A stretch of DNA of 32,000 nucleotides from Caedibacter taeniospiralis (lineage in GTDB: Bacteria; Pseudomonadota; Gammaproteobacteria; Francisellales; Francisellaceae). This document shows positions 5,022 to 32,000 of this stretch, in pieces. The first letter of the stretch is position 1. Every line of letters starts with the position of its first letter. The stretch covers positions 60,059 to 92,058 of the forward strand of contig NZ_PGGB02000005.1 of NCBI RefSeq assembly GCF_002803295.2, given 5' to 3'. The notes beneath the pieces were generated by a model. That model saw only the letters and a list, made by a program, of their open reading frames with translations, made no database searches and was not told the origin of the DNA. The position numbers and the translations under genes are program-made.

Positions 5022-5056
5022 CATTTACACAAGTTTTATAAAGGGTATTAAACGAT

Positions 5057-7640: not shown

Positions 7641-7728
7641 TTAAGACTCGAATCGCTCTGTTATAAAGTTTTGGGATTATATATCAGCTATGAACTATTT
7701 TGCAGAGATTTCACTGCTATCTTCCAGG

Positions 7729-7776
7729 GTCATATACTACCCCAAACTGTCAAGACAGTTTGGGGTAGTATATGAC
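7729..7776. repeat. perfect 48-bp palindrome (23-nt arms, 2-nt centre)
   Basis: GTCATATACTACCCCAAACTGTC-AA-GACAGTTTGGGGTAGTATATGAC, located in the divergent permease/malQ intergenic region. Confidence 0.95.
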
Positions 7777-7984
7777 AGCAACTATGCTTTTTGTGTGCCA
7801 TTATGAAAACCTTTTTGGCGGCGAGCAGCCTTGCTTGCTTGTGGAGTCAGCTGCTCGCGTCAAAAGTTTTCGTATAACAATTAAAATCCCTTGCAAAAGG
7901 GAGAAAGTCCATATATGGTCAGACCTGCGAGGCGAGGTAGTGCAGCAAAAATGCGTAACGCCCATCAATAAACAGGGACAAAGG

Positions 7985-9367: not shown

Positions 9368-9396
9368 AATGGAGCAATGTATACAGCAGTTACAAA

Positions 9397-11304: not shown

Positions 11305-11391
11305 TAAGGGATATCAAGTTTAATAAGATACCCATTTGACGGTAGTAGTAGGGTGGAGATCCCTAAACTTATGGGCTTTACGTCATTGTGA

Positions 11392-11413
11392 GCGAGGATA
11401 TTGTCCCAATGCC
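11392..11413 (+). repeat. short dispersed intergenic repeat, copy 1 (GCGAGGATATTGTCCCAATGCC)
   Basis: Matches 17725-17745 with one mismatch and one 1-nt indel. Both copies are intergenic. Confidence 0.75.
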
Positions 11414-11482
11414 AAAAAGTCTGCAAAATAGTTTACGATGAGTATATAATGCGGATCATTGAATTATCGATCAACCATCAAC

Positions 11483-12967
11483 ATGCCTAAGTGTTTAAAT
11501 ATTCTGTTTGCTTCATCTGAAGCGGTGCCTTTTATAAAAACGGGGGGCTTGGCAGATGTAAGCGGTAGTTTGCCAAAAGCGTTAAGTCACTTGGGTCTCG
11601 CGGTATCTGTTATTATTCCTGCGTATCGCGAGGTATTAGCAAGTGTGGTTGATGCAAAAGTGGTGAGTCAATTTAGCGTTTTTGGGTTTGGCAAAATCTA
11701 TTACGTCAAACTGATTGAAGCACGAGTTCCAATTCCAAGCACGTCGCTTACATTCTGGTTTATTGATATCCCAGAGCTATTTGATCGTCCCCATGGTATC
11801 TACTTAGCAGAGGATGGTAAAGACTGGTGGGATAATGGCGAACGTTTTGCCATATTTTCTAAAGCGGTTACTGAAGTCGCCATGAATAGAGTCAAGCTGG
11901 ATTGGAAAGCAGATGTTGTGCATAGTAACGACTGGCAAACGGGAGTAATATCAGTTTTTCTTAAACTAGAAAAAAATTGCGCTAAAACCGTCTTTACGAT
12001 TCATAACATGGCATATCAAGGCAGTTTTCCGTATGAAGTATTTAAAGCCATGAACCTGCCAGAGCACTGGTGGCATAAGGATGGATTGGAATTTTATGGT
12101 AATTTTTCCATGCTCAAAGCAGGAATTTTATTTTCAGATATTGTCACAACGGTCAGTCCAACCTATGCAAAAGAAATATGTACGCCCAGGTTTGCTTATG
12201 GTCTTGAAGGGGTAATGCGTCGGTGTCAGCTTGAAGGTAAACTATTTGGGATTTTAAATGGAATAGATCAAGCCCATTGGAATCCGCAAAAGGATACACT
12301 CATTCCCTATCGGTATTCTGCAAGCTATCGATTGATGGCAAATAAATTTAAAAATAAACAGGCTTTACTGTCAGCACTAGGTGTCGGTGGTGGTATTGTA
12401 AACCTTGAAGCGCCACTATTTGGGTTAGTTGGCAGGTTAATTGAGCAAAAGGGCATCGATTTAATTCTGAGTGTTGTGCCTGATTTACTGACCTACAGCA
12501 ATGCAAATTTTGTGTTTCTTGGATCAGGTGATCATCATTTCGAGCACGCTATTAAGTTATTTGCAGAGCATTACCCTGATAGGGTTTTAGTACGCATTGG
12601 CTACGCTGAAAAGTTGGCACATATGATTGAAGCAGGGGCTGATCTGTTTTTGATGCCATCTCGTTTTGAACCCTGTGGACTCAACCAGCTCTATAGTTTG
12701 GCTTATGGCACGCTACCGATCGTTCACCACACAGGCGGCTTGGCAGATACGGTTGTAAATGCAAGCACAGAAAATATAGCAAGAGGTACCGCAACTGGTT
12801 TTGTTTTTTATGAGCCTACCGCGTATGCACTCAAAGAAACCATGTATTATGCTATCAGCCTTTTTGCTCAGAAAGAACGATGGAAGGGGATACAAAGAAC
12901 GGCAATGGCTCAAAATTTGAGCTGGGAAAACAGTGCTAAAGCGTATTTGGATTTATATTGTTTGTAA
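11483..12967 (+). CDS. glgA: glycogen synthase (GT5)
   Basis: The N-terminus ILFASSEAVPFIKTGGLADV matches the KTGGL signature. The C-terminal region reads PSRFEPCGLNQLY...GGLADTV. The ATG at 11483 is preferred over the TTG at 11459. Confidence 0.9.
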   Translation: MPKCLNILFASSEAVPFIKTGGLADVSGSLPKALSHLGLAVSVIIPAYREVLASVVDAKVVSQFSVFGFGKIYYVKLIEARVPIPSTSLTFWFIDIPELFDRPHGIYLAEDGKDWWDNGERFAIFSKAVTEVAMNRVKLDWKADVVHSNDWQTGVISVFLKLEKNCAKTVFTIHNMAYQGSFPYEVFKAMNLPEHWWHKDGLEFYGNFSMLKAGILFSDIVTTVSPTYAKEICTPRFAYGLEGVMRRCQLEGKLFGILNGIDQAHWNPQKDTLIPYRYSASYRLMANKFKNKQALLSALGVGGGIVNLEAPLFGLVGRLIEQKGIDLILSVVPDLLTYSNANFVFLGSGDHHFEHAIKLFAEHYPDRVLVRIGYAEKLAHMIEAGADLFLMPSRFEPCGLNQLYSLAYGTLPIVHHTGGLADTVVNASTENIARGTATGFVFYEPTAYALKETMYYAISLFAQKERWKGIQRTAMAQNLSWENSAKAYLDLYCL

Positions 12968-12985
12968 ACCTGACTATTCCAGAGT

Positions 12986-13010
12986 AGTCAGGTAAACCTG
13001 ACTTATTTTT
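12986..13010 (+). terminator. putative intrinsic terminator after glgA
   Basis: AGTCAGG-TAAA-CCTGACT stem-loop followed by TATTTTT. A competing upstream hairpin exists (see findings). Confidence 0.45.
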
Positions 13011-13055
13011 CAATAGTCACTAAGGTTAATGGAGTTTTTATTAGAGGTAAAAAAT

Positions 13056-15551
13056 ATGGTAAAAAATACAGAAAAAGCTTCTCAGATCATGGCACAGGTT
13101 GAGAGCGAAGTTGATAGTAATAAAGAGCAAATTGCAAAAAGCTTTATCCATTACTTATACAATTCACTGGGTCGAGAAATCGATTCTAAGGCACATTATC
13201 TGGAGCATGCGCTTGTTTATACCATTCGCGATCGACTGATGATTAATTGGAAAAAAACAGAACAAAGATACGCTATCAAAAATTTGAGGAAAGGATACTA
13301 TCTTTCCATGGAGTTTCTGATAGGACGTTCTTTGACCAATAGTCTGATCAATCTAGGATTGAAAGATATTACGCTTGCCGCCTTATATGATTTGGGTCTC
13401 AACTTTGAAGAAATTGAAGAGGCTGAGCATGATGCAGGGTTAGGCAATGGCGGTTTAGGAAGATTGGCCGCCTGCTTTATGGATAGTTGTGCCACATTGG
13501 CTTTGCCGGTTATGGGGTACGGATTGCGCTACGAATATGGAATGTTTAGGCAGCATATAAAAAATGGTTACCAGGTAGAAGAGCCTGATCAGTGGTTGCG
13601 CCATGGTTACTACCCCTGGGGATTAATGCGTAGAGAATATACCAGGGTGGTTAAGTTTGGAGGTAGAACCGTTAAATCAGTTCACCCTGACACAGGACGG
13701 CTCATGGTGAAATGGGAAGATACTTGCCCCGTATTGGCTGTGCCATTTGATGTTCCTGTACCTGGATTTAGCAATAATGTTGTCAATACCTTAAGATTAT
13801 GGTCAGCGGCAGCCGTTGAAGCGTTTAATCTCAATGCGTTTAACGCAGGCTCATATGCCTCTTCGGTGGCAGAAAAAAATAATGCAGAAAGTATCACAAT
13901 GGTACTTTATCCAAATGATGCAAGTGAAAATGGTAAGGAATTACGTCTTAAACAGCAGTATTTCCTGGTGTCAGCAAGTCTTCAGGATATTGTTGTGCAA
14001 TGGGCAGAGAAAAATAATAATGATTTTACTCAATTTGCTGAAAACAATACCTTTCAACTAAATGATACCCACCCAAGTCTTGCAATTGCAGAGTTAATGC
14101 GACTTTTAATGGATGAGTATGAGTTAGAATGGCAGGATGCCTGGGAGATAACGAGCAAAACCATGGCGTATACTAACCATACTTTATTGCCTGAAGCATT
14201 AGAAAAGTGGCATGTTTCACTCTTTGAGCGCCTATTGCCACGCCTGTTGGAAGTTATTTATGAGATCAATAAGCGGTTTTTAAATGTCATTGAGCAGAAA
14301 TGGTCAGACGATATCAGTAAACAGCGCGAGCTATCTATCATTGACGAAGATAATATGGTGCGCATGGCACATTTAGCCATCGTAGGCAGTTATTCGGTAA
14401 ATGGTGTCGCAGAGCTACATTCTCAGCTGTTAAAAGAGAGTTTGTTTAAAACGTTTTATGATTTATGGCCACAAAAATTTAATAACAAAACCAATGGCGT
14501 GACCCAAAGGCGCTGGCTGGCGGTTTGTAATCCTGAGCTTAAACAGTTATTGGAGGATAAAATTGGAGGGGATTGGATTGTAAATCTTGATGAGTTAAAA
14601 AAAATAGAAGCATTTGCAGAGGAGAGTGCATTTTGCGAGCGCTGGGAGAAAGTCAGACTTGCTAATAAAAAACGTTTAGCTAATTACATTAAAAAAGAAA
14701 CCGGAGTGGAGTTTGATCCCAGTGCGTTATTTGATGTTCAGGTAAAACGGATTCACGAATATAAGCGCCAGCTGTTAAATATTCTGCATGTTATTCATCT
14801 TTATAACAGGATTAAAAGAGGGCAAACTCAACATTGGACTAATCGCTGTGTGATTATTGGCGGCAAAGCAGCGCCAGGTTATTACATGGCAAAGCTTATT
14901 ATTAAGTTGATCAATAATGTGGCAGATAGGATTAACCATGATTTAGAAGTTGGGGATAAGCTTAAGGTTGTTTTTCTGCCAAATTACAGCGTTTCAGCAA
15001 TGGAAGTGATTTGTGCAGGAACAGATTTATCCGAGCAAATTTCTACAGCAGGCAAAGAAGCTTCAGGCACGGGTAATATGAAGTTTATGATGAATGGTGC
15101 GATCACCATTGGCACGCTCGATGGTGCTAATGTTGAAATATTAGAGGAAGTGGGTAACGAGAATTTTTTTCTCTTTGGATTAAAAACAGCTGAGGTTTCT
15201 GCGCTGCGCAAACATTACAACCCTGAGCACTTTATCCAAAATAATAACGACCTTAAACAAGTGATGGATAGGCTTGAGTCTGGATTTTTTAATGAAGAAG
15301 AACCGAATATTTTTGACAGCATCATAGGTTCATTAAAAAGCCCGTATGATCCCTGGATGACTTTAGCAGATTTTGCAGACTATCTACAGGCACAACAGCG
15401 GGCAGCGAATACCTTTCAAAATAAGGCGGGTTGGATAAAAATGAGCATCATAAACTGTGCGCGAAGCGGTCGTTTTTCATCAGATCGCACGATACGTCAA
15501 TACAATGATGAAATATGGAAGCTAAGCCCCGTGGGTATAGACAAAACGTAG
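13056..15551 (+). CDS. glgP: glycogen/maltodextrin phosphorylase (GT35)
   Basis: Contains the PLP-lysine motif EASGTGNMKFMMNGA, plus GLGNGGLGRLAACF and NDTHP. The ATG at 13056 has a GAGGT Shine-Dalgarno sequence 7 nt upstream. The ATG at 13029 is an alternative. Confidence 0.9.
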   Translation: MVKNTEKASQIMAQVESEVDSNKEQIAKSFIHYLYNSLGREIDSKAHYLEHALVYTIRDRLMINWKKTEQRYAIKNLRKGYYLSMEFLIGRSLTNSLINLGLKDITLAALYDLGLNFEEIEEAEHDAGLGNGGLGRLAACFMDSCATLALPVMGYGLRYEYGMFRQHIKNGYQVEEPDQWLRHGYYPWGLMRREYTRVVKFGGRTVKSVHPDTGRLMVKWEDTCPVLAVPFDVPVPGFSNNVVNTLRLWSAAAVEAFNLNAFNAGSYASSVAEKNNAESITMVLYPNDASENGKELRLKQQYFLVSASLQDIVVQWAEKNNNDFTQFAENNTFQLNDTHPSLAIAELMRLLMDEYELEWQDAWEITSKTMAYTNHTLLPEALEKWHVSLFERLLPRLLEVIYEINKRFLNVIEQKWSDDISKQRELSIIDEDNMVRMAHLAIVGSYSVNGVAELHSQLLKESLFKTFYDLWPQKFNNKTNGVTQRRWLAVCNPELKQLLEDKIGGDWIVNLDELKKIEAFAEESAFCERWEKVRLANKKRLANYIKKETGVEFDPSALFDVQVKRIHEYKRQLLNILHVIHLYNRIKRGQTQHWTNRCVIIGGKAAPGYYMAKLIIKLINNVADRINHDLEVGDKLKVVFLPNYSVSAMEVICAGTDLSEQISTAGKEASGTGNMKFMMNGAITIGTLDGANVEILEEVGNENFFLFGLKTAEVSALRKHYNPEHFIQNNNDLKQVMDRLESGFFNEEEPNIFDSIIGSLKSPYDPWMTLADFADYLQAQQRAANTFQNKAGWIKMSIINCARSGRFSSDRTIRQYNDEIWKLSPVGIDKT

Positions 15552-15810
15552 CTACCCAGCAGGTCTAAAAATAAGCAGAAAATCGGATTTAAATCTGAAT
15601 AACTTTGTTTGAAAAGCAGCTTCACAAAAGAGAATTGACTTATTTGTGAACATGATTGACTTTAAAACACTCTATTTCATGAGCATTTATCATGCTGCTA
15701 GGTAGTTACCAAAGAAGGTACTATCGGAGTTAAAAACCAGGTGCAAAAAGCATTGCAGGTGGCGTAAGGTGAATAGGAATAAGAGTTCTTAAAAAAACTT
15801 TCTTGGCAAC

Positions 15811-15822
15811 TTGGGGTAGTAT
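15811..15822 (+). repeat. isolated copy of the palindrome arm core TTGGGGTAGTAT
   Basis: Exact 12-mer match to the right arm of the 7729-7776 palindrome. It lies in the glgP / GT39 convergent spacer. Confidence 0.8.
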
Positions 15823-15855
15823 CTCTCAGAAATCAGCAAAAGGATGTAACTCGAG

Positions 15856-17586
15856 CTATTGAGTAAGTGCTGCTTCTGCCACAGAGTGATTTGTCAATAA
15901 GTAGCGTTTAGGCGTTTGTGCTAATAGATATCCTTGGTAAGGTTTACCCTGTTTAAAATACGTATCATAGTTATCGTCATCGGTCATTACAAACACACGC
16001 TGATCACTTTGCCAGATAGGCCAAAATTGCGCAGCGGTTCTTAAAGTTTTATCCGCCCCTGAGTCTGGCATTTTCGCTGTATTGGCCAGCTCTCCCTCAT
16101 TGGCAACAATCCAGGTTAAACGATTTAAATAAAACTGAGCGTCATAATAATAACCACCATAGTTGGCAACGATGGCATTTGGATAGGTTTTTAACAATAA
16201 CGCAACAATGTTTGTTAATGGCTTTACCGTTTTTTGGGCAAAATACTGCGAGCCAGACCAGCCTAAATTTAAAATAATCATCATCGCAAACACAAAGCAC
16301 AACATCATTGCTTTGAGGTTGTTTTTTCTTAAGTAACCAAATCCAACAATCGTTGTGACCAGAGCCACTATTGCCCCTGGCCAATAGAATGCTGCAATTT
16401 CACTAAAGAACATGGAAAAGTTTGAAATAAATGGCAACACCACAAAGGCAATGGCAATGATCAGGAAAAAAAACAGTGTGATTGCAACACTTGCCTTCGT
16501 CGATTTGCGCATTTCAGGTTCATTGAGAAGCTTATCAACGCGGCGTGCGATCAAGATGGCAAATGGCGTAATGATTGGAATTAAATAACCCATGAGTATT
16601 GATTTTGAGAAAGCAAAAAACAATAAAATCGCCATACCCCAAATAAATAAAAACCATTCATTTTCATGTTTTTTACGGTTTTCCCATTTCAGTAACACCG
16701 ATGTGAATGCCTGTGGTAAAAAGCCAAACCAAGGGAAAAAGCCGATGATAAAAATTCCAGCATAGACAAACTTACTCATCTGTCGCCCCTGCTCATCGGT
16801 GGCATAGCGCAAAATCTGTTGCACGATCACGTAGTAATAGAAAAACTCAGGATGCTGGTTATTCACTGCAATAACCCATGGTGCTGAAATTATTGTAACA
16901 ATAACCAAACCAAGGTAAAGACGGTAATCAAGTAACAGCCTATATTTTCCAACAACGATTGCCCATAGCCCAATAATCATCATTGGAAATACAATACCAA
17001 TAAGACCTTTGGTCATTACTGCAAGCCCAGAAAAAATAAAGGCATTCAATAACCAAAGATGTGCTTGCCAGCTCTTTTGAGCATATTGTCTTGATGCCCA
17101 GAAGGACAGCATTGTGATCGTCAGAAAAAATGCAATGCCGGCATCCAGATTGAGATAGCGACCACCACCTAAATATAAAATTGAGGTTCCCGTAATCAAA
17201 GCCGCCCAGAATGACACACGCCTTTTTTGGTAGACGATGCGGCAAACAATATAAACAAACCACACCCCAATAATCGATAACACAGGATTTGGCAGTCTTG
17301 CTGCCCAGATATTAAAACCAAAAATTTTTAAGGACAACGCCGTCAACCAGTAGATCATTGGCGGTTTTTCAAAATAAATAACCCCATCCAGGTGCGGCAC
17401 GATGTATTCGTGATTGACAAGCATCTCACGTGCGATTTCAGCATAACGCCCTTCATCCGGGGTAAACAGCACGGGTACGCCATAAAGGCATAAAGCAATT
17501 GCCATGATAATAGTCACTATTAATAAATCACACCAAAATATTCGATCCATTTGCCAACGAAGGCGACTCATCTTTTTTTCCATCAT
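15856..17586 (-). CDS. glycosyltransferase family 39 (ArnT/PMT-like, undecaprenyl-phosphate-sugar dependent)
   Basis: Polytopic membrane protein with an N-terminal DEGRYAEIAREM loop motif typical of the ArnT/PMT_2 family. The start is uncertain (ATG at 17586, 17583 or 17571). The track TTG at 17649 is unlikely. Confidence 0.75.
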   Translation of the reverse strand: MMEKKMSRLRWQMDRIFWCDLLIVTIIMAIALCLYGVPVLFTPDEGRYAEIAREMLVNHEYIVPHLDGVIYFEKPPMIYWLTALSLKIFGFNIWAARLPNPVLSIIGVWFVYIVCRIVYQKRRVSFWAALITGTSILYLGGGRYLNLDAGIAFFLTITMLSFWASRQYAQKSWQAHLWLLNAFIFSGLAVMTKGLIGIVFPMMIIGLWAIVVGKYRLLLDYRLYLGLVIVTIISAPWVIAVNNQHPEFFYYYVIVQQILRYATDEQGRQMSKFVYAGIFIIGFFPWFGFLPQAFTSVLLKWENRKKHENEWFLFIWGMAILLFFAFSKSILMGYLIPIITPFAILIARRVDKLLNEPEMRKSTKASVAITLFFFLIIAIAFVVLPFISNFSMFFSEIAAFYWPGAIVALVTTIVGFGYLRKNNLKAMMLCFVFAMMIILNLGWSGSQYFAQKTVKPLTNIVALLLKTYPNAIVANYGGYYYDAQFYLNRLTWIVANEGELANTAKMPDSGADKTLRTAAQFWPIWQSDQRVFVMTDDDNYDTYFKQGKPYQGYLLAQTPKRYLLTNHSVAEAALTQ

Positions 17587-22233: not shown

Positions 22234-23088
22234 ATGATAAAAGGGTATGGTTTTGGTTTTCTCTATGTTTTTCTTGTCGCTGCTTCGACCATTTGGCTAA
22301 ACAGTCTGGGTCAAGGCATAACCATTCCTATCCTTTTATTTTATACCTCGCTGACCTCAATATTGATTTTCAATTTGGTGAATATTAATCGGTTTAAGCA
22401 AAACCATGCGCTAATTTTGAGTTCCAAGAAAAATTGGCTTTATATGTCAATTTGCCTAATCTTCGTCTGGTATTTTACCTACTATGCAACAATTCACAGT
22501 TCTGCTGAATTTTTCATTGCGACAGCGTTTTTGACGGCAGCATTTATTTCTTCAGGGCTTGCCAAGAAATATTTTAAAACCTTGGCTTGTGTGTTCTCTT
22601 TGGGGTTGGTTTATTTTTATTCTTCTATCGATTCGCCTATCACTTTAGGGACCGCCATGCTTGCAGGGGCAGCAACTTATGCCTATTACCGAAGTTCTTA
22701 TCAATTTAGCCAAGAAACAAAAATGAGTGCGTTGGCAATTCTCTCCATTCGATTTTATCTGGTTTTGCTTTTTGCAGTGCTTTACATTGTGGCTTCAGGC
22801 GAGCTCATTCATCTAAAAATTTCGATTGATGAAATCGCGGTAATTGTCTTATTTGCATTGGTGAACATGGTAATGCCCGCTTATTTGTCGCAAACCTCTT
22901 TGCATGCTATCGGTGTCAGTAAGTTTACTTTTTTAAACACGCTCATCCCTGCTTTAACCTTCTTTTTGGATGCCATTTTTAATCATACTTGGCATATTCA
23001 AATGCTTGTTGCTTGTCTTTGTGCTACGCTGACCCTGAATGTAGATCAATGGGGACGGGCATTTAGCGCCCGCCAGCAACGTCAATAA
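22234..23088 (+). CDS. polytopic membrane protein, DMT/EamA-like permease (tentative)
   Basis: 284 aa with about 10 hydrophobic segments and a strong Shine-Dalgarno sequence (AAGGAAAGAGG). The family call rests only on size and topology. Confidence 0.45.
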   Translation: MIKGYGFGFLYVFLVAASTIWLNSLGQGITIPILLFYTSLTSILIFNLVNINRFKQNHALILSSKKNWLYMSICLIFVWYFTYYATIHSSAEFFIATAFLTAAFISSGLAKKYFKTLACVFSLGLVYFYSSIDSPITLGTAMLAGAATYAYYRSSYQFSQETKMSALAILSIRFYLVLLFAVLYIVASGELIHLKISIDEIAVIVLFALVNMVMPAYLSQTSLHAIGVSKFTFLNTLIPALTFFLDAIFNHTWHIQMLVACLCATLTLNVDQWGRAFSARQQRQ

Positions 23089-23809
23089 AACTTCCTGTGA
23101 CATACGAGGCTTCATCGGACAACAACCAAAGAATGGCATTTGCTACTTCACCTGGCTCACCACCTCTTTGCATCGGTAAGGAATCTTTGATGCGATCAAC
23201 CCGATTAGGCTCACCACCGCTGGCATGGATATCAGTATAAATGAATCCAGGTCTGACACAGTTCACACGAATTCCCTCATTTGCCACTTCTCGTGATAGG
23301 CCTATGGTTAAAGTATCGATTGCTCCTTTTGAGGCGGCATAGTCCACATATTCTCCAGAGGAACCTAAGCGTGATGCGGCAGAGGAAACATTAACAATCG
23401 CACCTCCACTTCCCCCTTGTTTCGTAGACATGCGTTTCACAGCCTCACGTGCGCATAAGAAATGGCTTGTGATGTTGGTCGTGAAAATTCGGTTGAGTCG
23501 GGCCATATCCATTTGATCAACACGCATTTTTTGCTCTAGGATTCCCACATTGTTGACTAAGGCTGTTAGGAGACCTAGTTCTTTGTCTACCGTTTTAAAG
23601 AGCTTTTCAACAACGGATTCTTGGCTAACATCCCCTTCAATAGCAATTGCTATCCCGCCAGTTTTTTGGATTTGAGCAACCAAATTCTGAGCTGACTGTT
23701 GCTTACGAAGGTAGTTAATACATACAGCGTAACCTTGTGCTACCGCTTTTAATGCAGTTTCAGCACCAATTCCACGGCTTGCACCTGTGATCAACATTAC
23801 TTTTTGCAT
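23063..23809 (-). CDS. short-chain dehydrogenase/reductase (classical SDR)
   Basis: TGASRGIG cofactor motif, NNVG, and the catalytic YAASK motif. 248 aa with an AAAGGA Shine-Dalgarno sequence. Confidence 0.85.
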   Translation of the reverse strand: MQKVMLITGASRGIGAETALKAVAQGYAVCINYLRKQQSAQNLVAQIQKTGGIAIAIEGDVSQESVVEKLFKTVDKELGLLTALVNNVGILEQKMRVDQMDMARLNRIFTTNITSHFLCAREAVKRMSTKQGGSGGAIVNVSSAASRLGSSGEYVDYAASKGAIDTLTIGLSREVANEGIRVNCVRPGFIYTDIHASGGEPNRVDRIKDSLPMQRGGEPGEVANAILWLLSDEASYVTGSFIDVAGGR

Positions 23810-23844
23810 GTGGTAGTCCTTTCTCGGTCTGGCACCTCATTATT

Positions 23845-24534
23845 CTAGTCAATATTGGACTTACTGATAATGTGCGTACTCCATTTTTTCTTGAGCAGCA
23901 GGCATTTTTTGTTGAGGTAGTTTAACGGAAAGGGCATGGGGCGCATAATATCAACCATCAAGATAACGCGAATGCTGTCGCTGTGATTCGTGACTTCATG
24001 GTCATAGCGATCATCAATGATAATGCTTTCACCCATTTTCCAAGTATAGGTCTTGTCAGATACCCTAATAAAAGGAGGGTTGTTTTTGGGGATCGTAATT
24101 CCAAGGTGATACCTCAGTATGCCTGCATAAGGGCCCTGATGTGCTGCAAGGCAGACGCCAGGCTCCAGCACAGCGATCGTTACATTAATCGGATCGGGCA
24201 TGCCTTTGATAAGCTCAAGTAGTTTAGGGCAATCTTTTTGGGCATGGGGGTTGATTTGCCACATGAAAGACACATAGTAGAGTTTCCAGTTTTCAGAAAC
24301 CTCTTTGGCTCGAATGGGATCAATATCTTTGTAGGCAGTCAAATTTCTGGTTGAGACTAGCTGATCAATTTCTTCTTTAATTTCATCAAAGTGGTCTTCT
24401 AATATTTTTGAGTCTGGAAAAACCTTTTTTGAATCCAAAAAAGGCGGGCGCCTGTCCCAGCCTGCATAAGTTAAAAAAAGAGCATTTAAGAGGCTTCTGA
24501 AAAAAGCGCTATTCTTACTGATTGATCCCTTCAT
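23845..24534 (-). CDS. aspartyl/asparaginyl beta-hydroxylase-family Fe(II)/2OG oxygenase (soluble, LpxO/AspH-like fold)
   Basis: HQGPYAGILRYHLGITIP ... IIIDDRYDHEVTNHS ... RVILMVDIMRP matches the family core (PF05118-type). It lacks the obvious membrane anchors of LpxO. Confidence 0.7.
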   Translation of the reverse strand: MKGSISKNSAFFRSLLNALFLTYAGWDRRPPFLDSKKVFPDSKILEDHFDEIKEEIDQLVSTRNLTAYKDIDPIRAKEVSENWKLYYVSFMWQINPHAQKDCPKLLELIKGMPDPINVTIAVLEPGVCLAAHQGPYAGILRYHLGITIPKNNPPFIRVSDKTYTWKMGESIIIDDRYDHEVTNHSDSIRVILMVDIMRPMPFPLNYLNKKCLLLKKKWSTHIISKSNID

Positions 24535-24545
24535 TTTTCCCTCTC

Positions 24546-25379
24546 TTAATTTCTAGGTTTTCTGGCAATGATATAGCAGAACTGGCCTATTTTTTGTCTG
24601 AGTTTATCCCTGGACTGAATATAGTCATGAATTTTCCCACTTTCTTTTAAAGAGGTTAATTTATTCAGTACCCCATTGAGCTCATCTGGGGTTAATAAGG
24701 AAAAATGCGAGTCGCCATCCCTGAATTCTTTCTTATAAAGAGAGTCAGCATCGAAATATCCATTGTGTTGGATGATGGTAGAAGTGGGTACGATTTTTTC
24801 TGGGGTGGCATAGCCAAACGTATTGAGTATTTCTACCAATTGATCATCAGATAAAAAGCGTTTTTTCATTCTATCTACGGCAGGCTTAATCAATTCACCC
24901 CACCACACGCCATCATCCAATTGTTCGTGAGTGATGGTGTTGATGATCAATCTCCCATTGGGTTTTAAAGCCTTAAGCGCATATTCAAAAAAGCGTCTGT
25001 GATTTTTAAAGTTTGTGTCTACTTCATCTATGTGATGAAGCGACTGGTTGCACATAATAGCATCGAATGTATTTTCTTTAAATGGAAGCTCAGAAATATC
25101 ACATCGAATTAGGTCATCATTTTTCAGGTCTTTTTCTGTATATTTTTCTTTTGCTTTGGCAAGCATTCCCTGGCTAAAATCTGCGGAAATCACATTTGGA
25201 ATGAATTTTTTTAAAGGGACTGCATAGTTACCTGTACCACACCCTGCATCCAGAACCTTAATATTTTCCAGTTTCTCCTGTATCGTTAGAATGTAGCCAA
25301 GGACAATTTCAATACCGACTGCGCTTCTGGTTTTATCATAATTTTTGCTGGTTTCGTCATAGCGCTCATACTTACTCAT
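24546..25379 (-). CDS. class I SAM-dependent methyltransferase
   Basis: Motif I VLDAGCGTGNYA, followed by post-I and motif II spacing typical of the Methyltransf_11/25 type. Its start overlaps the stop of the upstream Trm112-like gene (ATGA). Confidence 0.85.
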   Translation of the reverse strand: MSKYERYDETSKNYDKTRSAVGIEIVLGYILTIQEKLENIKVLDAGCGTGNYAVPLKKFIPNVISADFSQGMLAKAKEKYTEKDLKNDDLIRCDISELPFKENTFDAIMCNQSLHHIDEVDTNFKNHRRFFEYALKALKPNGRLIINTITHEQLDDGVWWGELIKPAVDRMKKRFLSDDQLVEILNTFGYATPEKIVPTSTIIQHNGYFDADSLYKKEFRDGDSHFSLLTPDELNGVLNKLTSLKESGKIHDYIQSRDKLRQKIGQFCYIIARKPRN

Positions 25380-25561
25380 TTGCTTAACTCCTTGTCGCTG
25401 ATTTTGATTGCTTCACTGCTGATTAAATTGGGTATGCCATCCTTGATGAGATAGGCGACACCGATCTCTTTTGAGATTAAGCGGTTATTTGCCTCATCAT
25501 AAATTAGAGGTTGCCTGGTGGTTGGGCAAACAAGATAATTGAGTAGTTCCTTGTTAAACAT
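25376..25561 (-). CDS. Trm112p-like / UPF0434 (YcaR-like) small protein
   Basis: The 61-aa MFNKELLNYLVCPTTRQPLIYDE...AYLIKDGIPNLISSEA aligns with the YcaR/Trm112 pattern (LL..L.CP...L.......L.......YP..DGIP.L). I chose the internal ATG at 25561. The zinc-knuckle cysteines are mostly absent. Confidence 0.7.
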   Translation of the reverse strand: MFNKELLNYLVCPTTRQPLIYDEANNRLISKEIGVAYLIKDGIPNLISSEAIKISDKELSK

Positions 25562-26603
25562 TTTTAGCGTTCTCCGTTGCTGAGTTGAAGTTAATGATAG
25601 ATTGTAAAGGTACTGGGGAAAAGCCAAGGCGTTCTTTTATAGCCTGTGTTGTGCGTCCTGCCTCAATGATCTTGTAATTATGTTGTAGGGCATATTGATA
25701 CAAATTGACATACAACATGGTGTAAGGGCTGTATTCAGTTAAGGAGTAATCCACCCCAAGCGCCCAAAAATGCAGCGTGTCATGGTCTAAAAATACGATA
25801 CCAGCAGCGACTCGCTGCTCGCCATGCTTGATCTCAAGTACCGTTGCAATGGCATCGCAGCTTTTTAGAAAATTGTACATCGGGCCTTTCGGATAGTAAG
25901 CCCCTGTCCCATATTTGTCAGTGGTCTGATGAATCAAATCGACAACCGCTTCTAAATCAGCATCCCGAATGTTGTACCACTTTGCAGAGGAGTCGGTTGC
26001 ATTGTATTTTCGTATTTGCCTATTTACTTCTTGTCGCCCATGTCTAGGTAGCTTTGCAATAATTTCATCTAAACTGGAGTGTGGAGCTATCTCTGTCCTA
26101 AAACGATTCCACATAGGATTGATTTTGTACTCATGCTTGCTAAAAATATCCAAGGGATAGCTTAAGGAATGAGTATCAATATTTAAAACACCGCAGCATT
26201 CTATTTGTTCTTTTTGGCGGATTGCTTTCAAAGAGCTCAAGATTTTTTCAATTACGATGTTTTCATGGCCTTTGGCCGCCAAAATTCTTGAATCGCTAAC
26301 GTGCATAATATGAGAGAAGAGCGCTTTGGTATCAGCAGAAAAATCATAGTTAGTGCTTTGGCTTAGCACTTTGAAGGTGTCTACATTTTTTTGTAGGTAT
26401 AAAGGGAGAAAGCCAACAATATCATCCTTGTGTTTAACAACGATGTAGAATGTTTTTAAGGTAGGAAGCAACGGAAATTGCTCAACAGCATTTAAAAGTT
26501 CCCAGCTATAAAATACAGATGCCCCCACAGATTTTTGAAATTTTTCGTATGGAGCGTGTTCAATGCTCTTAAGACCTTCAAAAACAGAAACTTCAAAACT
26601 CAA
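25554..26603 (-). CDS. FemAB-like / GNAT-fold acyltransferase family protein (PF04339 / PF13480-like)
   Basis: 349 aa. The C-terminal LHFWALGVDYS...SPYTMLYVNLYQYALQHNYKIIEAGRTTQAIKERLGFSPVP resembles the conserved end of the FemAB-like family. It starts at TTG, preceded by an AGGGGG Shine-Dalgarno sequence. Confidence 0.55.
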   Translation of the reverse strand: MSFEVSVFEGLKSIEHAPYEKFQKSVGASVFYSWELLNAVEQFPLLPTLKTFYIVVKHKDDIVGFLPLYLQKNVDTFKVLSQSTNYDFSADTKALFSHIMHVSDSRILAAKGHENIVIEKILSSLKAIRQKEQIECCGVLNIDTHSLSYPLDIFSKHEYKINPMWNRFRTEIAPHSSLDEIIAKLPRHGRQEVNRQIRKYNATDSSAKWYNIRDADLEAVVDLIHQTTDKYGTGAYYPKGPMYNFLKSCDAIATVLEIKHGEQRVAAGIVFLDHDTLHFWALGVDYSLTEYSPYTMLYVNLYQYALQHNYKIIEAGRTTQAIKERLGFSPVPLQSIINFNSATENAKNV

Positions 26604-26625
26604 GATCGCCCCCTAGCTAATTTAT

Positions 26626-26655
26626 ATTCTATGGTGTCGTGATTTAATAAATCAA
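26626..26655 (-). promoter_or_regulatory. candidate sigma70 promoter for the minus-strand 5-gene operon
   Basis: On the minus strand: TTGATT, an 18-nt spacer, then TAGAAT, about 20 nt upstream of the TTG start. This is pattern matching only. Confidence 0.3.
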
Positions 26656-26982
26656 TGGCACTACCTCAAGCAAGCACAGGTAAGTAACCACAAGATTTTA
26701 ATCTCTTCGGGATATATTTCCCGCTGCTTGCGGCAGGGAGTTTCATTTGAGCCCAGTTTTCAAATTTATTATGATTTTTTGCAAAAAAGCAATCAAATGG
26801 AAATGAAACTTAGGAGCGAATTCTAGCGTAAAACGTAAGGCAATACAAAACAAAAATTAGGTTTTTGCTATTTCAGGGAAGTGTAAGAAAAAGTGATGAA
26901 GGTGTTGTTTAATTCCTGTAAATATTGTAATTTTATGGCAGTTCGCACAAACTTGGCATAGCTCAGGTAAAGAGATAACGAA

Positions 26983-27372
26983 GTGATTAAGATTCAACTT
27001 AATTAGGGAAGCACAATGCTGTGAAAATGTGCGTAAATTACGTTGGTCAAAGGGCGTGATCTGTGCCCATATTGCCAAGCCCTGTCAGAAGAGATTATGA
27101 AGAGAAGGAGAGTGGGGAAAAGCATGTTCTGTCCACGTTATCGTTGCGAACGATGTCATCAGGACTTTGATGACTTAACTAATAGCATTTTCACAGCGTG
27201 CCATCAACCCCTGAGGGTGTGGATTTTACGCCTTTATTTTATGGGTTTAAAGTTATCCAATGAGCAGATTGCAAAGAAGTTTGTGTATAATGCAAGAAAA
27301 AAGAGAAAGGTCTTACCTGACCACTCTTTAGAGGCTTTTTTATGTAGAAAACCAACATTGGAGAAAGCATGA
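26983..27372 (+). pseudogene. IS1595-family transposase remnant (N-terminal zinc-ribbon/HTH part only, frameshifted, DDE domain missing)
   Basis: One frame reads LIREAQCCENVRKLRWSKGVIC. It continues in another frame as CPYCQ...YRCERCHQDFDDLTNSIF...PLRVWILRLYFMGLKLSNEQIAKKF. This matches the transposase zinc-ribbon N-terminus of IS1595/ISXO2-like elements. No catalytic domain follows. Confidence 0.55.
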
Positions 27373-28268
27373 CCATCACCTCCCTGAAACACCAAAAGAA
27401 CCATCTAAAAAATTAAAGGAACTGCTTTACAGCTCGGAATTAAAATTTTTTATGGAGTCTCATAGTGCATTAAGTGCCAAAATTGCAGAGGATGCAGGAT
27501 TTGAGGCTTTATGGGCCTCACGTCTCTCCATTTCTGCTTCAATGGGGTTAAGTGATAGAAACGAAGCCTCTTGGACACAGGTTCTAGAGGTAGTTGAGTT
27601 TATGGCTGACCATACTAAAGTTCCTATTTTAATGGATGGCGACACTGGCTTTGGCAACTTCAATAATGTGCGCCGTTTAGTGAAAAAGCTCTCCCAAAAA
27701 GGAGTGGCTGGGGTATGCCTGGAAGATAAGCTATTTCCAAAGCTTAATTCTTTCTTAGGGGATGGTCAGGAATTAGCAGATATTGAAGAGTTCAGTGGAA
27801 AAATTAAAGCTGCCAAAGATAGCCAACTGCATGATGATTTTTGTGTGGTAGCACGTACTGAAGCGCTTGTTGCAGGTCATGGCATGGACGAAGCTTTGAA
27901 GCGTGCAGATCGTTTTCATGCTGCTGGTGCAGATGCCATCTTGATTCATTCTAAAAAAGATACGGGAGACGAGGTGCTAGAATTTTGTAAACGGTGGGAG
28001 AATCGTTGCCCTGTCGTGATCGTGCCGACAAAATACTACAAAACTCCCACCACCACTTATCGGGAAGCTGGCGTGTCAACTGTAATTTGGGCTAACCATA
28101 GCTTGCGTGCGTCTATTGCAGCGATGAAGCGTGTAACTTCTCTGAATTAAAAAAGAAGAAGCTGTTTCTGGTATTGAGCATGAAATTGCCTCTCTTCACG
28201 ATGTGTTCTCATTAACAAATGAATTTGAAGTGCAGGAAGCTGAAAGAAAATACGGTATGCCATCATGA
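27369..28268 (+). pseudogene. pepM: phosphoenolpyruvate mutase (PepM), reading frame broken twice (segments 27369-27416, core 27452-28150, tail 28146-28268)
   Basis: The core carries the PepM-specific EDKX5NS motif ([10 protein letters not shown], 27722-27751), [11 protein letters not shown] and [10 protein letters not shown]. The N-terminal 15 codons follow a GGAGA Shine-Dalgarno sequence. The C-terminal 40 codons ([21 protein letters not shown]...AERKYGMPS) are homologous to PepM ends. Both end segments sit in a different frame from the core. Confidence 0.8.
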
Positions 28269-29377
28269 TTTGTCCAGAATATTTTACCAATGCTCTCATT
28301 GATCGTGGCGTGCAATTTTTCACAGGGGTGCCTTGCTCCTATTTAACCCCATTGATCAATGAGGTCATCGCTACCGAGGTCACGGATTACGTGATTGCTT
28401 CAAGCGAAGGAGATGCCCTTGCTATGGCTTCAGGAGCATGGCTCGCTGGCAAATTAGGATTGGTGATGTGTCAAAATTCAGGACTTGGCAACATGATTAA
28501 TCCTTTAACATCATTAAATGCCCCTTTTAACATTCCCGTTTTGCTATTGATCACGTGGAGAGGCAAGCCTGGTGAGCCCGATGAGCCTCAGCATGAGGTA
28601 ATGGGGAAAATTACAACAGGTCTTTTAGATTTAATGGGGATTCAATGGAGCTATTTTCCCGAGACTGAAGCCGAGGTTTTGGCATCCTTGGATAAAGCCA
28701 TGTCAGTCATGGGCAATGCCCATTGTCCTTATGCCCTCATTTTACAAAAGGACAGTTTCAAAACAGGAAAGCCAGCGCCTAAAGTGGTTGAAGATGCGCA
28801 CTTGCCAACTCGTGAGGAAGTATTGAGCACTTTCTTAAAATCTTTGCCCGATGAGGTCTCTGTGATTGCAACCACAGGAAAAACAGGACGGGAGCTATAC
28901 ACGTTGCAAGATCATTCAAAGCATTTCTACTGCGTAGGCTCAATGGGCTATGCTAATGCTTTAGCTCATGGAGTGGCCTTAAATAGCAAAAAACCAGTGT
29001 TTGTGATTGATGGTGATGGAGCAGCGATTATGCATCTTGGAAATCTCACCAGTATTGGTGCCAGTGCGCCGAGTAATTTAGTACATGTTATTTTAGATAA
29101 TGGAACGTATGATTCTACAGGGGCTCAAGCTACCGTTTCGGAGTACGTCGATTTTGCAGCATTAGCCAAAAGTTTGGGCTATAAAAAACAATTTCGCTGC
29201 TCTTCGCTAAGGGATTTTTCAAATGCTTTGAAAACCGTAGATTCTGGTGGACCTGCATTAATTCATTTGAAAATAAAAAGCGGTTCAATGAAAAATTTAG
29301 GGCGTCCAGCGGTTAAGCCGCATGAAATTGCTCGTCGGTTACGTCAACACATTCAGAAAATGGAACAAGGGGAATAG
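28265..29377 (+). CDS. ppd: phosphonopyruvate decarboxylase (ThDP-dependent)
   Basis: 370-aa fused alpha/beta ThDP enzyme with FFTGVPCSYL at the N-terminus and the ThDP motif GDGAAIMHLGNL...LDNGTYDSTG. Its ATG overlaps the stop of the PepM tail frame (ATGA). Confidence 0.85.
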   Translation: MICPEYFTNALIDRGVQFFTGVPCSYLTPLINEVIATEVTDYVIASSEGDALAMASGAWLAGKLGLVMCQNSGLGNMINPLTSLNAPFNIPVLLLITWRGKPGEPDEPQHEVMGKITTGLLDLMGIQWSYFPETEAEVLASLDKAMSVMGNAHCPYALILQKDSFKTGKPAPKVVEDAHLPTREEVLSTFLKSLPDEVSVIATTGKTGRELYTLQDHSKHFYCVGSMGYANALAHGVALNSKKPVFVIDGDGAAIMHLGNLTSIGASAPSNLVHVILDNGTYDSTGAQATVSEYVDFAALAKSLGYKKQFRCSSLRDFSNALKTVDSGGPALIHLKIKSGSMKNLGRPAVKPHEIARRLRQHIQKMEQGE

Positions 29378-29380
29378 TTT

Positions 29381-30613
29381 ATGCCAGAAATGATTAAAAA
29401 AGCCAAGCTCAATCCAAGCTTGTTAAACCTACAAATTTACGCTTCTAAAGCTATTTCCTTAGAGGTCAAAAAGAACCCTGACATAGTGGGGCTAAGCTTT
29501 GGTGAGCCAGAGTTTGGTCCCCCCCCTTATGCCCTAAAAGACATTGAAGATAAAGACCTTTCTATCGGCAACTTTTTAAACGCGGTAAAGCGCTATGAGG
29601 ACCCGAAAGGATCATTAGAGCTTAGGCAGGCTATCGCTGCTTGGTATAAGCAGCGTTACAATTTAGATGTGAACCCTGAGAAAGAAATTATGGTGACACA
29701 CGGAGGGGTTGAGGCCATTACCCTAGCCATTTTGTCTACCAGTGAAGTGGGTGATATCATTGCGGTGACGGACCCCTCTTACATGCTTTATTCTCGAACG
29801 ATTACAACCCTAGAGCGTAAGTGCCATACGATTCATCGTCCAGTAGGCGGGTATGAATATAAGAAAATTCTGGAAGATAAAGCTATTCTGCAGTCAGACT
29901 TTGCCAAAGCAAAAACGATCATTATTAATTCACCAGAAAATCCTTCTGGGTATGTGGTTGATCCTACTGAATGGGAAATGATTGCCGATTACTCCAAAAA
30001 AATGGGGCTATGGGTCATTCATGATGAGGTTTACGATACAATGGCGTTCGAGCGAAAGCACATTCCATTTCGAGCTAGTTGTTCTTTGCCACCCTATTCA
30101 ATTATGATCAACAGCTTTTCTAAAAAATTTGGTATTCCAGGCTTACGTATTGGCTGGATAGTCGCAAATGAAGAGGTAATTAATTTAGCGAGCAAGATTC
30201 ATGACTATATGTATCTTGGGGTCAATATTCAGTATGAAAAAATTGCAACTCGCTTACTGTCTGACCAAAGAAATATGGAATGGCTGGCAGGCATTACTCA
30301 GAAAATAAAGCAACGCGCAGAAAAAGCAATGCACGTTCTGGGTGAACAGCAAGGGTTTTCCTGGCCTCGTCTGCCTCTTGGCGCAATGTTTCTTTTCCCG
30401 AATGTGCGTGCTTTGTATGATAAAATGCCTGAAGCCTATCGGTCAAAAGGTGTAGTTGTAGGGGATGCTGTAGCACAATATTTGATGAAAGAGAAAAAAG
30501 TGGCTGTCGTGCCTGGTTCAGTGTACGGTTCGGAAAGCAGTGAGCATGTACGCCTGGTATTGTGTACAACTGATAAAGAGTTTGATCTTGCGCTTGACCG
30601 CCTTCAAGCTTAA
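29381..30613 (+). CDS. PLP-dependent aminotransferase, class I/II (AspC-like fold)
   Basis: NSPENPSG, the PLP-lysine motif NSFSKKFGIPGLRIGW, and C-terminal VRL. 410 aa, starting 3 nt after ppd. Confidence 0.85.
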   Translation: MPEMIKKAKLNPSLLNLQIYASKAISLEVKKNPDIVGLSFGEPEFGPPPYALKDIEDKDLSIGNFLNAVKRYEDPKGSLELRQAIAAWYKQRYNLDVNPEKEIMVTHGGVEAITLAILSTSEVGDIIAVTDPSYMLYSRTITTLERKCHTIHRPVGGYEYKKILEDKAILQSDFAKAKTIIINSPENPSGYVVDPTEWEMIADYSKKMGLWVIHDEVYDTMAFERKHIPFRASCSLPPYSIMINSFSKKFGIPGLRIGWIVANEEVINLASKIHDYMYLGVNIQYEKIATRLLSDQRNMEWLAGITQKIKQRAEKAMHVLGEQQGFSWPRLPLGAMFLFPNVRALYDKMPEAYRSKGVVVGDAVAQYLMKEKKVAVVPGSVYGSESSEHVRLVLCTTDKEFDLALDRLQA

Positions 30614-30624
30614 GGGCGTCAATC

Positions 30625-31446
30625 ATGAAAACTGAAAAAAATTCCTTGATCGAACAAGGATTTGCTCATTTTAAAAACGCGCTGCATCCTTCTGCATTTT
30701 CTGCTTTGAGTGAGGAATATGAACGTCTGGTTGTAAGAGCGCGAGAAATTATAGCTCACACTAAGAAAGAAAATATCAGTTTGGGAGATTATTACCAGCA
30801 GCATGATGGCGAAATTATTGTTGTACCTGAAGCGGAGCAACCGACCGAGCCTTGCCGTTTTGAATATATTGCGCATTGTTCAAAGCGTTTAAATGATGAG
30901 GTTGTTCAGTATGTGAAAGATTTAATTGAAACGCTAACTGGCGAGTCATTTGTACTGTTTAAAGATAAGTGCAATCTTAAAAATCCAGGAGGCGGTGCTT
31001 TTCCTCCACACCAGGATATTACTGCATATCGCCATTTCAAGCCAAAGTTCCATATTACTGCGGCAGTCATGCTGGATGACTCAACCGTAGAAAATGGTTG
31101 TTTGGAAATGGCAAGTAATTATCACCAAAGTCTTGGGACTCAAGCATTAGGCATTCTGGATTTTTATGAGGGAGGTCCTCGCAATGGAGACATTAAGGAT
31201 GAGATTAGTCAGCAATTTGATTGGAGGTCTATTCCAGCGGCGCCTGGTGATGTAGTGCTTTTTAATTCCTTTGTGCCACATCGATCAGCAAAGAATACTT
31301 CGCAAAAGAGTCGACGGAATTTCTTTTTTACTTTTAATGTGGCTCGAGAAGGCAACTGGTATGAGCATTATTATGCTGCAAAAAAGCTGGACTTTAATAA
31401 TCCGATGTTTCATGTTTCGACCCCAACGCAGCATCGAGGCAAGTAA
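30625..31446 (+). CDS. PhyH-family Fe(II)/2-oxoglutarate dioxygenase (PhnY-like candidate)
   Basis: 273 aa with the facial triad candidates HQD (PPHQDITAY) and distal His (FVPHRSAKN), followed by an Arg-rich 2OG-binding region. The context is a phosphonate operon. Confidence 0.75.
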   Translation: MKTEKNSLIEQGFAHFKNALHPSAFSALSEEYERLVVRAREIIAHTKKENISLGDYYQQHDGEIIVVPEAEQPTEPCRFEYIAHCSKRLNDEVVQYVKDLIETLTGESFVLFKDKCNLKNPGGGAFPPHQDITAYRHFKPKFHITAAVMLDDSTVENGCLEMASNYHQSLGTQALGILDFYEGGPRNGDIKDEISQQFDWRSIPAAPGDVVLFNSFVPHRSAKNTSQKSRRNFFFTFNVAREGNWYEHYYAAKKLDFNNPMFHVSTPTQHRGK

Positions 31447-32000
31447 ATGAGTAAACAGGCACGTTTATTTACCCCAGGACCTTTAAATACTTCACAACAG
31501 GTTAAGGCATCGATGCAGATTGACCTTGGAAGCCGTACCGAGACACTTGCCGATTTGACTCAGAATATTCGGAATGAGCTTGAGTCTATTGCTGAATGCG
31601 GGAAAGAGTGTACCTCTGTTCTGTTGCAGGGAAGCGGCACTTTTGCTGTGGAGGCAATGCTAAGTACGTTGATTCAGGCAGATGATTGTGTATTGGTCAT
31701 ATCTAATGGTGTATATGGTGACCGGATGGCTAAAATATGCCAGATACATGGACTGCCTTTTTTTGTCTTGCAGCAGGACCCAGCGGCTCCGATTCAGCTT
31801 GATGAGGTTGAGAAATTTCTCAAAAATGAGCCATGCATCACACACATTGGGGTGGTTCAATTTGAGACTGCTGTAGGGATATTGAATAATATCGACGCTT
31901 TACTAGTTTTAGCTGAGCAGCATGCTTGCAAAGTTTTGGTGGATGCAATGAGTTCCTTTGGAGCATTACCATTGCCCTATCAAAGTACTGCTTTGGTTGC
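31447..32000 (+). CDS. phnW: 2-aminoethylphosphonate:pyruvate aminotransferase, 3' end beyond window
   Basis: This ORF is absent from the track because no stop is reached. My own translation is MSKQARLFTPGPLNTSQQVKASMQIDLGSRTE...VLLQGSGTFAVEAMLSTL...ISNGVYGDRM...VDAMSSFGALP. That is the class V aminotransferase pattern of PhnW. The ATG immediately follows the dioxygenase stop. Confidence 0.85.
   Translation, partial: MSKQARLFTPGPLNTSQQVKASMQIDLGSRTETLADLTQNIRNELESIAECGKECTSVLLQGSGTFAVEAMLSTLIQADDCVLVISNGVYGDRMAKICQIHGLPFFVLQQDPAAPIQLDEVEKFLKNEPCITHIGVVQFETAVGILNNIDALLVLAEQHACKVLVDAMSSFGALPLPYQSTALV

Follow-up and report, generated by a model that had tools for sequence, protein, structure and literature searches.

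A probable young phosphoenolpyruvate mutase pseudogene at the head of an otherwise intact phosphonate cluster in Caedibacter taeniospiralis 51K

The gene treated here, pepM of Caedibacter taeniospiralis 51K, lies in a 32,000-nucleotide stretch of that genome (contig NZ_PGGB02000005.1, positions 60,059 to 92,058 of the forward strand; hereafter the window, to which all coordinates refer), and its closest described counterparts are the phosphoenolpyruvate (PEP) mutases (PepM/AepX, family TIGR02320, structures 1m1b and 1pym). Once artificially repaired, its sequence aligns end to end with these enzymes, keeps the equivalents of their metal and catalytic residues and is followed downstream by ppd, with which it shares an ATGA overlap; unlike them, however, it is not a single open reading frame (ORF), has no in-frame start, meets a stop inside helix 8, has its C-terminal tail out of frame and carries an Arg in place of Gly47. 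The locus resembles the young pseudogenes of recently host-restricted bacteria in belonging to an obligate symbiont with a genome half its relatives' size or less, and in combining single-base insertions or deletions with a decayed insertion sequence (IS) at an adjoining inversion junction and a gene that is otherwise little diverged. Nothing essential sets it apart from that class, in which it is distinguished by the fact that just the first gene of a pathway is affected while its ten partners are intact. It also recalls genes expressed through programmed frameshifting (−1 in dnaX and IS3-type elements, +1 in prfB-type sites), with a slippery heptamer at its first break and a stop in the A site at its second, but differs from the dnaX, IS3 and prfB sites in having no stimulatory structure or Shine-Dalgarno (SD) element, no conservation of the shifts and poor +1 re-pairing. 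In Buchnera and Blochmannia, slippage of transcription on long poly(A) tracts rescues frameshifted genes, and here too an endosymbiont frameshift touches an A run; unlike in those cases, the run has just six A, a change of run length would not repair the second lesion, and the consensus of a sequencing run that is probably RNA (ERR3813248) is uncorrected.

It is very probable that pepM of strain 51K, an obligate cytoplasmic symbiont of Paramecium tetraurelia (PMC5773718, PMC7297999), is a young pseudogene with three independent lesions, its product, the first enzyme of phosphonate synthesis, being the point of entry to a cluster of 11 genes that is otherwise intact. That the gene is split had been proposed earlier from the letters of the DNA (the sequence-only reading), and the proposal was reproduced with all its coordinates and translations; its three segments, however, occupy two reading frames and not three, their start positions modulo 3 being 0, 2 and 0. 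All three lie on the forward strand. The first is a mini-ORF of 15 codons (27369–27416), out of frame with the core, whose ATG at 27369 follows a GGAGA SD sequence (27360–27364) and whose stop is a TAA at 27414–27416. The second, the core frame (27404–28150), contains the start of the homology at 27404, the CTG used as start by RefSeq at 27422, the first ATG at 27452 and a premature TAA at 28148–28150, the ORF from this ATG to the TAA encoding 232 residues. The third is an untranslatable C-terminal tail (28146–28268, IKKEEAVSG...ERKYGMPS) in the ancestral frame, which retains the ATGA overlap with ppd, the gene directly downstream.

When one base is added in the A run at the first break and one is removed from an AATT at the second, the reconstructed, artificially repaired PepM is 299 residues long and scores 373.7 bits against the TIGR02320 PEP_mutase model (cutoff 319.55), and its residues 14–295 align in a single stretch with mussel PEP mutase 1m1b; by these measures the split pieces belong to one pepM, far beyond chance. 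As it stands the DNA does not hold the uninterrupted ORF of a PEP mutase, the homology being split at 28144/28146 and the core having no start before 27452. The equivalents of Asp58, Asp85, Asp87, Glu114, Lys120, Asn122, Arg159 and His190 (mussel numbering), which we take to be the catalytic and metal residues, are all kept in the 1m1b alignment, in whose output the D58A entry 1s2u also bears out where Asp58 lies. The exact 232-residue core is on record as a protein (P0004) that clusters with RefSeq WP_267901799.1, a 242-residue “phosphoenolpyruvate mutase” that takes CTG 27422 as its first codon and begins MLYSSELK, and this entry looks like a mis-annotated pseudogene.

The 3′ lesion can be placed in a single codon. 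A tblastn search with the PepM of an uncultured relative (Logan contig L013, from SRR13608714) matches residues 10–256 to 27404–28144 with 81% identity and residues 257–294 to 28146–28259 in the other frame, the alignment breaking between 28144 and 28146. In relatives the corresponding codons read TTG ATT AAG AAA GAA, TTA ATC AAA or ATC ATT AAA (Leu-Ile-Lys), whereas the window reads CTG AAT TAA AAA. Set against these codons, the lesion can be shown to be one base inserted into an Ile codon (ATT to AATT, 28145–28148), by which an ancestral CTG ATT AAA AAA GAA would have come to read AAT TAA. The affected Ile is invariant in an alignment of 36 sequences (alignment A1), where it corresponds to I251 of the homologue P0001; in the AlphaFold model of P0001 (predicted local distance difference test score, pLDDT, 91.8), I251 stands in the last turn of helix 8 (H235–254), and it is there that the insertion would end translation. 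The helices that follow helix 8 in this model (258–263, 267–273 and 276–286) are all lost here, and with them three invariant and six near-invariant residues of alignment A1. The sequence-only reading had held that with one base fewer in the AATT the frame reads on into IKKEEAVSG...YGMPS, a tail that aligns with PepM C-termini and overlaps ppd by ATGA (ATG at 28265, TGA at 28266–28268). Both points held, the tail being identical to its relatives at 26–28 of 36 positions, and the insertion also breaks the ATGA coupling to ppd. The possibility that the tail is made as a stand-alone C-terminal peptide was rejected, as a start codon first appears in the tail frame at its penultimate residues.

A third lesion, a Gly-to-Arg change at an invariant active-site Gly, had been missed in the earlier account. 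The codon CGT at 27521–27523 encodes Arg at residue 52 of the repaired protein, in a column where 119 of 122 homologues have Gly and 2 have Ser, this gene alone having Arg. The same column is the invariant G43 of alignment A1, and every solved superfamily member that was aligned has Gly there (the two PEP mutases, phosphonopyruvate hydrolase and CPEP mutase). It corresponds to mussel Gly47, the first residue after strand beta-2 and situated at a helix N-terminus, as seen both in the 1m1b alignment and in the P0001 model; in the invariant Ser-Gly that follows strand beta-2 in the isocitrate lyase/PEP mutase superfamily, the Gly has become an Arg here. Backbone amides at the Gly47 loop bind the substrate. 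While the substitution itself is plain from the alignment, from its position we infer that it would damage the active site.

At the 5′ end, what can be stated firmly is the absence of an in-frame start in the conserved N-terminal helix. PepM homology begins at KKLKELLY (27404/27407) in the core frame, in which the stretch from the upstream stop to just before 27452 contains no ATG, GTG or TTG, and ATG 27452 maps to the middle of strand beta-1 in the P0001 model. The previously described ATG at 27369 with its GGAGA, the A6 run at 27407–27412 and the stop at 27414–27416 were all found again. The run encodes KK in the core frame, and in the mini-ORF frame forms part of the heptamer A_AAA_AAT. It had also been suggested that an extra A in this run would give a canonical PepM N-terminus, and this stands for the residues from KKLKELLY onward but not for the 12 residues ahead of the A run, which match no relative's N-terminus. 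In the closest relative (L012), the gene starts ATG TCC AAG CCA AAA AAA TTA, with an in-frame AAA AAA (KK) at the same spot and the start four codons upstream of it. Because the homology starts only at KKLKELLY, and the residues that precede it are unlike those of relatives and appear to be IS-encoded, the 5′ “frameshift” cannot be located to the A6 run, and it may be doubted that there was a frameshift at all.

The IS origin of this region is suggested by a transposase remnant of the IS1595 family (26996–27372, forward strand), which is frameshifted near 27064, lacks the DDE domain and ends in a TGA at 27370–27372. With an Acaryochloris IS1595 transposase as the tblastn query, residues 11–33 match at 26996–27064 and residues 33–106 at 27064–27291 in another frame, and the last 22 residues, the natural C-terminus, match weakly at 27277–27342 (E=0.045); the DDE part is found nowhere in the window. 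The remnant matches the N-termini of annotated IS1595 transposases at about 1e-14 to 1e-21, and these homologues carry PF12760, the N-terminal zinc-ribbon domain of such transposases, while the 109-residue fragment itself has no Pfam match at E 0.01 or better and no NCBIfam match. It is bracketed by the best inverted repeat in 26600–27470, whose arms, a candidate left terminal repeat at 26863–26883 and a candidate right one at 27377–27397 (both given on the forward strand), pair at 18 of 21 positions and may be the terminal inverted repeats of the element. The right arm begins 5 nucleotides after the transposase stop, lies inside the 15-codon mini-ORF and encodes most of the 12 residues mentioned above. 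On these features the IS1595 element is, as far as its sequence goes, a dead remnant. It spans about 535 base pairs (26863–27397), is internally deleted and has no close relatives in any collection searched; a check of its ends found just four short, distant homologues and no DNA match in plasmids.

The position of the remnant connects it with a rearrangement. In L013 the cluster is contiguous in the order pepM, ppd, aminotransferase, PhyH, two class V aminotransferases, FemAB, methyltransferase, hydroxylase, SDR and EamA (6633–17104, corresponding to 22234–32000 of the window), and in Caedibacter this 11-gene phosphonate cluster is split by an inversion, the FemAB-to-EamA block being turned round so that it adjoins pepM at its 5′ side; the point where the two meet is precisely where the IS remnant lies. 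ATG 27369, which with its SD sequence is the sole such pair upstream and is one base out of frame, is probably not the old pepM start, since it lies inside the end of the decayed IS1595 remnant at the inversion junction. The 5′ step of the inactivation was most likely a rearrangement at this IS-marked breakpoint that removed the original start, and we lean modestly towards an IS-mediated event of this kind, in which the ATG and SD sequence at 27360–27371 would be IS-derived and out of frame by chance. The alternative cause, a one-nucleotide deletion that turned an A7 into the present A6, is less probable, though it retains real weight.

Given the three lesions, standard decoding would be predicted to give no active PEP mutase, and the output of the locus would be at most a 15-residue peptide and perhaps, by reinitiation, a truncated mutant core. 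That the shortened protein could itself be a working enzyme, either the 232 residues from ATG 27452 or the 242-residue RefSeq model from CTG 27422, is very unlikely. The RefSeq name, the retention of the catalytic and metal residue equivalents within the core and the existence of a natural relative, P0003, that starts four residues before the CTG position all speak for such an enzyme, but ATG 27452 would begin it in mid strand beta-1, CTG initiates very poorly and has an AAGGA only one base ahead of it, and none of the best 120 homologues is shorter than 274 residues. The product would also lack the three C-terminal helices with their nine conserved residues and would carry Gly47Arg; in the solved enzyme, helix 8 and the C-terminus are reportedly swapped between subunits. 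The sequence-only reading had doubted that the 232-residue core would be active by itself, and this doubt is borne out, as the core begins within strand beta-1 and is without the end of helix 8 and the three conserved C-terminal helices.

The comparison with orthologues, which the sequence-only reading had proposed as a check, finds the relatives unbroken. The six closest homologues (86, 82, 81, 80, 79 and 75% identical) are each a single ORF of 286–323 residues, neither break is shared by any of them, and the 4-nucleotide ATGA overlap of pepM and ppd is present in all close relatives whose downstream gene is assembled. No intact near-identical PepM was found among about 15 billion proteins, and no other Caedibacter strain was found in a scan of genome contigs (which returned relatives of at most 75% identity only, and not the 51K genome itself) or in two metagenome DNA-pattern scans. 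As far as present data show, the breaks are thus private to this genome.

The 51K genome was assembled with ABySS from Illumina MiSeq 2x300 reads (PMC5773718, PMC7297999), and in a second 51K draft Illumina contigs were later joined via Nanopore/Canu contigs (PMC7297999). A Logan contig of 1403 bases (L011), assembled solely from the reads of run ERR3813248, agrees with window 26948–28350 at 100% of positions, both break sites included. In the rest of the window, 79 homopolymer runs of 6–9 bases, 20 of them at least 7 long, lie inside intact ORFs across about 29 kb, and each of the 15 other large ORFs matches its family over essentially the whole length, among them XerD, LpxH, HldE, Mpl, MalQ, GlgB, GlgA, GlgP, GlnA and PtsP. 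Because the L011 sequence is identical, the 79 runs lie in intact ORFs and the other large ORFs are full length, an assembly error at the pepM breaks is unlikely. In the corresponding alternative, the real gene would be intact, its first site reading A7 and its second being one base shorter, and its sequence would have been corrupted by homopolymer miscalls or Nanopore-derived joins near the IS. The use of Nanopore/Canu contigs for joining (PMC7297999), the neighbourhood of an IS remnant, a typical place for contigs to break, and the A/T-rich runs at both sites would all favour such an artefact, but noisy long reads could not yield the match of L011 over 1403 bases and both sites, and neither the 740 bases between the sites nor the surrounding 29 kb contain any other frame break despite the many runs of at least 6. 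Moreover, the second lesion is not a homopolymer change that could restore the frame, since a shorter A6 keeps the TAA, and Gly to Arg is a substitution and not an indel. An artefact is accordingly given very little credence, and the earlier option of two assembly errors finds no support, the genome being Illumina-based and both sites recurring in the ERR3813248 assembly.

The nature of ERR3813248 itself bears on expression. The ENA deposit reported by the Dual-Seq paper comprises RNA reads only (PRJEB36201; PMC7297999), and because only RNA reads are reported as deposited there, ERR3813248 is probably an RNA-seq run; a full-text literature search for the accession gave no match. The supplement of the Dual-Seq paper contains no mention of pepM, phosphonates or pseudogenes, and exact look-ups of ppd, the aminotransferase and GlnA, made for the coverage of neighbouring genes in ERR3813248, returned no records. 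Contig L011 begins inside the IS remnant (window 26948) and ends inside ppd. If ERR3813248 is indeed an RNA run, the locus may still be transcribed, and transcription of the pepM pseudogene and ppd may begin within the IS remnant.

A rival reading is programmed recoding, in which translation would start at ATG 27369, shift −1 on A_AAA_AAT and +1 at AAT_TAA and so yield the 299-residue PepM, or in which RNA polymerase slippage would achieve the same. The core–tail junction of this hypothetical full-length product would read VTSL(I/N)KKEEAVSGIEHEIASLHDVFSLTNEFEVQEAER. Several observations agree with recoding: ATG 27369 sets the frame in which the X_XXY_YYZ heptamer A_AAA_AAT would be read, with a stop directly after it (CT[A AAA AAT] TAA), the second site (CUG AAU UAA A) is stop-adjacent with the stop in the A site, the two shifts cancel so that the tail ends in the ancestral ATGA overlap, and the well-preserved core and tail, like the ten conserved pathway genes and a tail conserved though untranslatable, would find an explanation. 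The sites themselves, however, lack what such events require. The segments 27414–27460 and 27414–27500 fold no better than shuffles (z = +0.40 and +0.76), no stable structure is found downstream of either site (z = +0.76, +0.40, −0.01 and −1.38), there is no Rfam family in 26000–29000, and there is no SD-like element in 27369–27406 for the first site or in 28116–28147 for the second. The earlier suggestion of a −1 slip site was therefore right about the heptamer and its frame, but the site has neither stimulator nor conservation, and that of a +1 site was right about the adjacent stop, which is accompanied by no SD-like element and by a re-pairing from AAU to AUU with a central mismatch. For tRNA-Asn this mismatch makes re-pairing poor, and UAA-A is not a weak stop of the kind used at prfB-type sites. 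Useful transcriptional slippage needs tracts of about 9 or more A, far longer than A6; at the second site the TAA precedes and overlaps the A6 run, and loss of an A leaves the stop in place, while the ERR3813248 consensus is uncorrected at both sites. In addition, the mini-ORF in which translation would begin is probably IS-derived, the relatives are unbroken and the sites unconserved, the low efficiencies of two events would be multiplied, and Gly47Arg would remain in whatever was made. Recoding, which had been left open as an option, is thus extremely improbable, and for want of structure, of an SD stimulator and of conservation of the breaks, and with a rescued product that is still mutant, that option is not supported.

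The same A6 runs, touched by both sites, could also suggest a phase-variable contingency gene, in which slipped-strand mispairing in these runs would turn pepM, and a surface phosphonate decoration that depends on it, on or off within the population, the more so as the cluster resembles a surface-modification or natural-product pathway. Slippage at high frequency, however, takes a longer run than A6. Expression would require each of two independent switches to be on, and in both available assemblies each is off; the AATT of the second lesion is not a matter of run length, and no slippage could reverse Gly47Arg. Phase variation was rejected, its probability being close to nil.

The interpretation of pepM as a young pseudogene, which the sequence-only reading had listed among its options as a decaying pseudogene, is upheld by the private breaks, the intact relatives, the additional Gly lesion and the decayed IS at the rearrangement junction. 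It has to be noted that a number of observations weigh against it. The core (232 codons) and the tail (40 codons) contain no internal stops, and the untranslatable tail still has codons for all nine of its conserved residues. At near-invariant columns of the 122 sequences the gene has one private change (G52R), the other sequences having 0–3, and there is no acceleration of its rate, its distance to outgroups being the same as that of P0001; in a smaller set of 12 sequences, private changes number four. The excess of missense decay that would be expected was accordingly not found. The ten neighbouring cluster genes are full length and intact, which would be odd if their substrate were no longer made, and ppd has no private change at 73 columns that are invariant among relatives. 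Furthermore, the inverted repeat that brackets the IS remnant is only marginally significant, 5% of dinucleotide shuffles reaching its score; the comparison of the breaks covers relatives of 75–86% identity; and the data of ERR3813248 may overlap with the reads from which the genome was assembled. Because core and tail are otherwise as conserved as in relatives, the inactivation, to the extent that sequence conservation dates it, is recent; the same conservation fits a very recent loss, but continued translation would leave the same pattern.

Downstream of pepM, on the forward strand, ppd (phosphonopyruvate decarboxylase, 28265–29377) is intact, scoring 424.6 bits against TIGR03297 (cutoff 312.5) over profile positions 1–360 of 360. 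It is followed, collinearly with L013, by intact genes for a class I/II aminotransferase (29381–30613) and a PhyH-family dioxygenase (30625–31446), both with Pfam support, and for a class V aminotransferase (31447 to the window end at 32000). In the inverted block, intact genes supported by tblastn with L013 and by Pfam encode a FemAB-like protein (25554–26603), a methyltransferase (24546–25379), an Asp/Arg hydroxylase (23845–24534) and an SDR protein (23063–23809), all on the reverse strand, and an EamA-like protein on the forward strand (22234–23088). Between the methyltransferase and the FemAB-like gene lies an intact Trm112-like ORF on the reverse strand (25376–25627; PF03966, E=1e-10), which has no counterpart at the same position in L013 and may encode an activator partner of the methyltransferase. 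On its two sides in L013 the cluster has genes for a phage-type integrase and a eukaryote-like mitochondrial carrier (4436–5698 and 17224–17520), which suggests that it is a mobile island in another intracellular bacterium. Elsewhere in the window, the ORFs at 4–1209 (401 residues) and 2141–2620 (159 residues) match no NCBIfam model at an E value of 1e-10 or better. A C9 tract at 9420–9428, eight codons into glgB, encodes PPP in frame, and a C8 tract at 29519–29526 lies in frame within the phosphonate-cluster aminotransferase (GPPP); these, the longest homopolymers of the window, could be slippage-prone.

The biology of the locus is ordinary, namely gene decay in the shrinking genome of an obligate endosymbiont, which in C. 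taeniospiralis measures 1.32 Mb as compared with 2.1–3.2 Mb in free-living relatives. In practical terms, WP_267901799.1 should be flagged as a pseudogene, and metabolic reconstructions of Caedibacter should not assume de novo phosphonate synthesis. The ten intact partners of pepM imply either that decay has only just begun or that phosphonate precursors are supplied by the host. Paramecium has membranes rich in aminoethylphosphonate lipids, and its ciliary membranes are enriched in phosphonolipids (PMC9222137); it may be speculated that pepM is dead and the cluster kept because the Paramecium host supplies a phosphonate precursor. Such a supply, if true, would be a modest case of metabolic complementation between host and symbiont.

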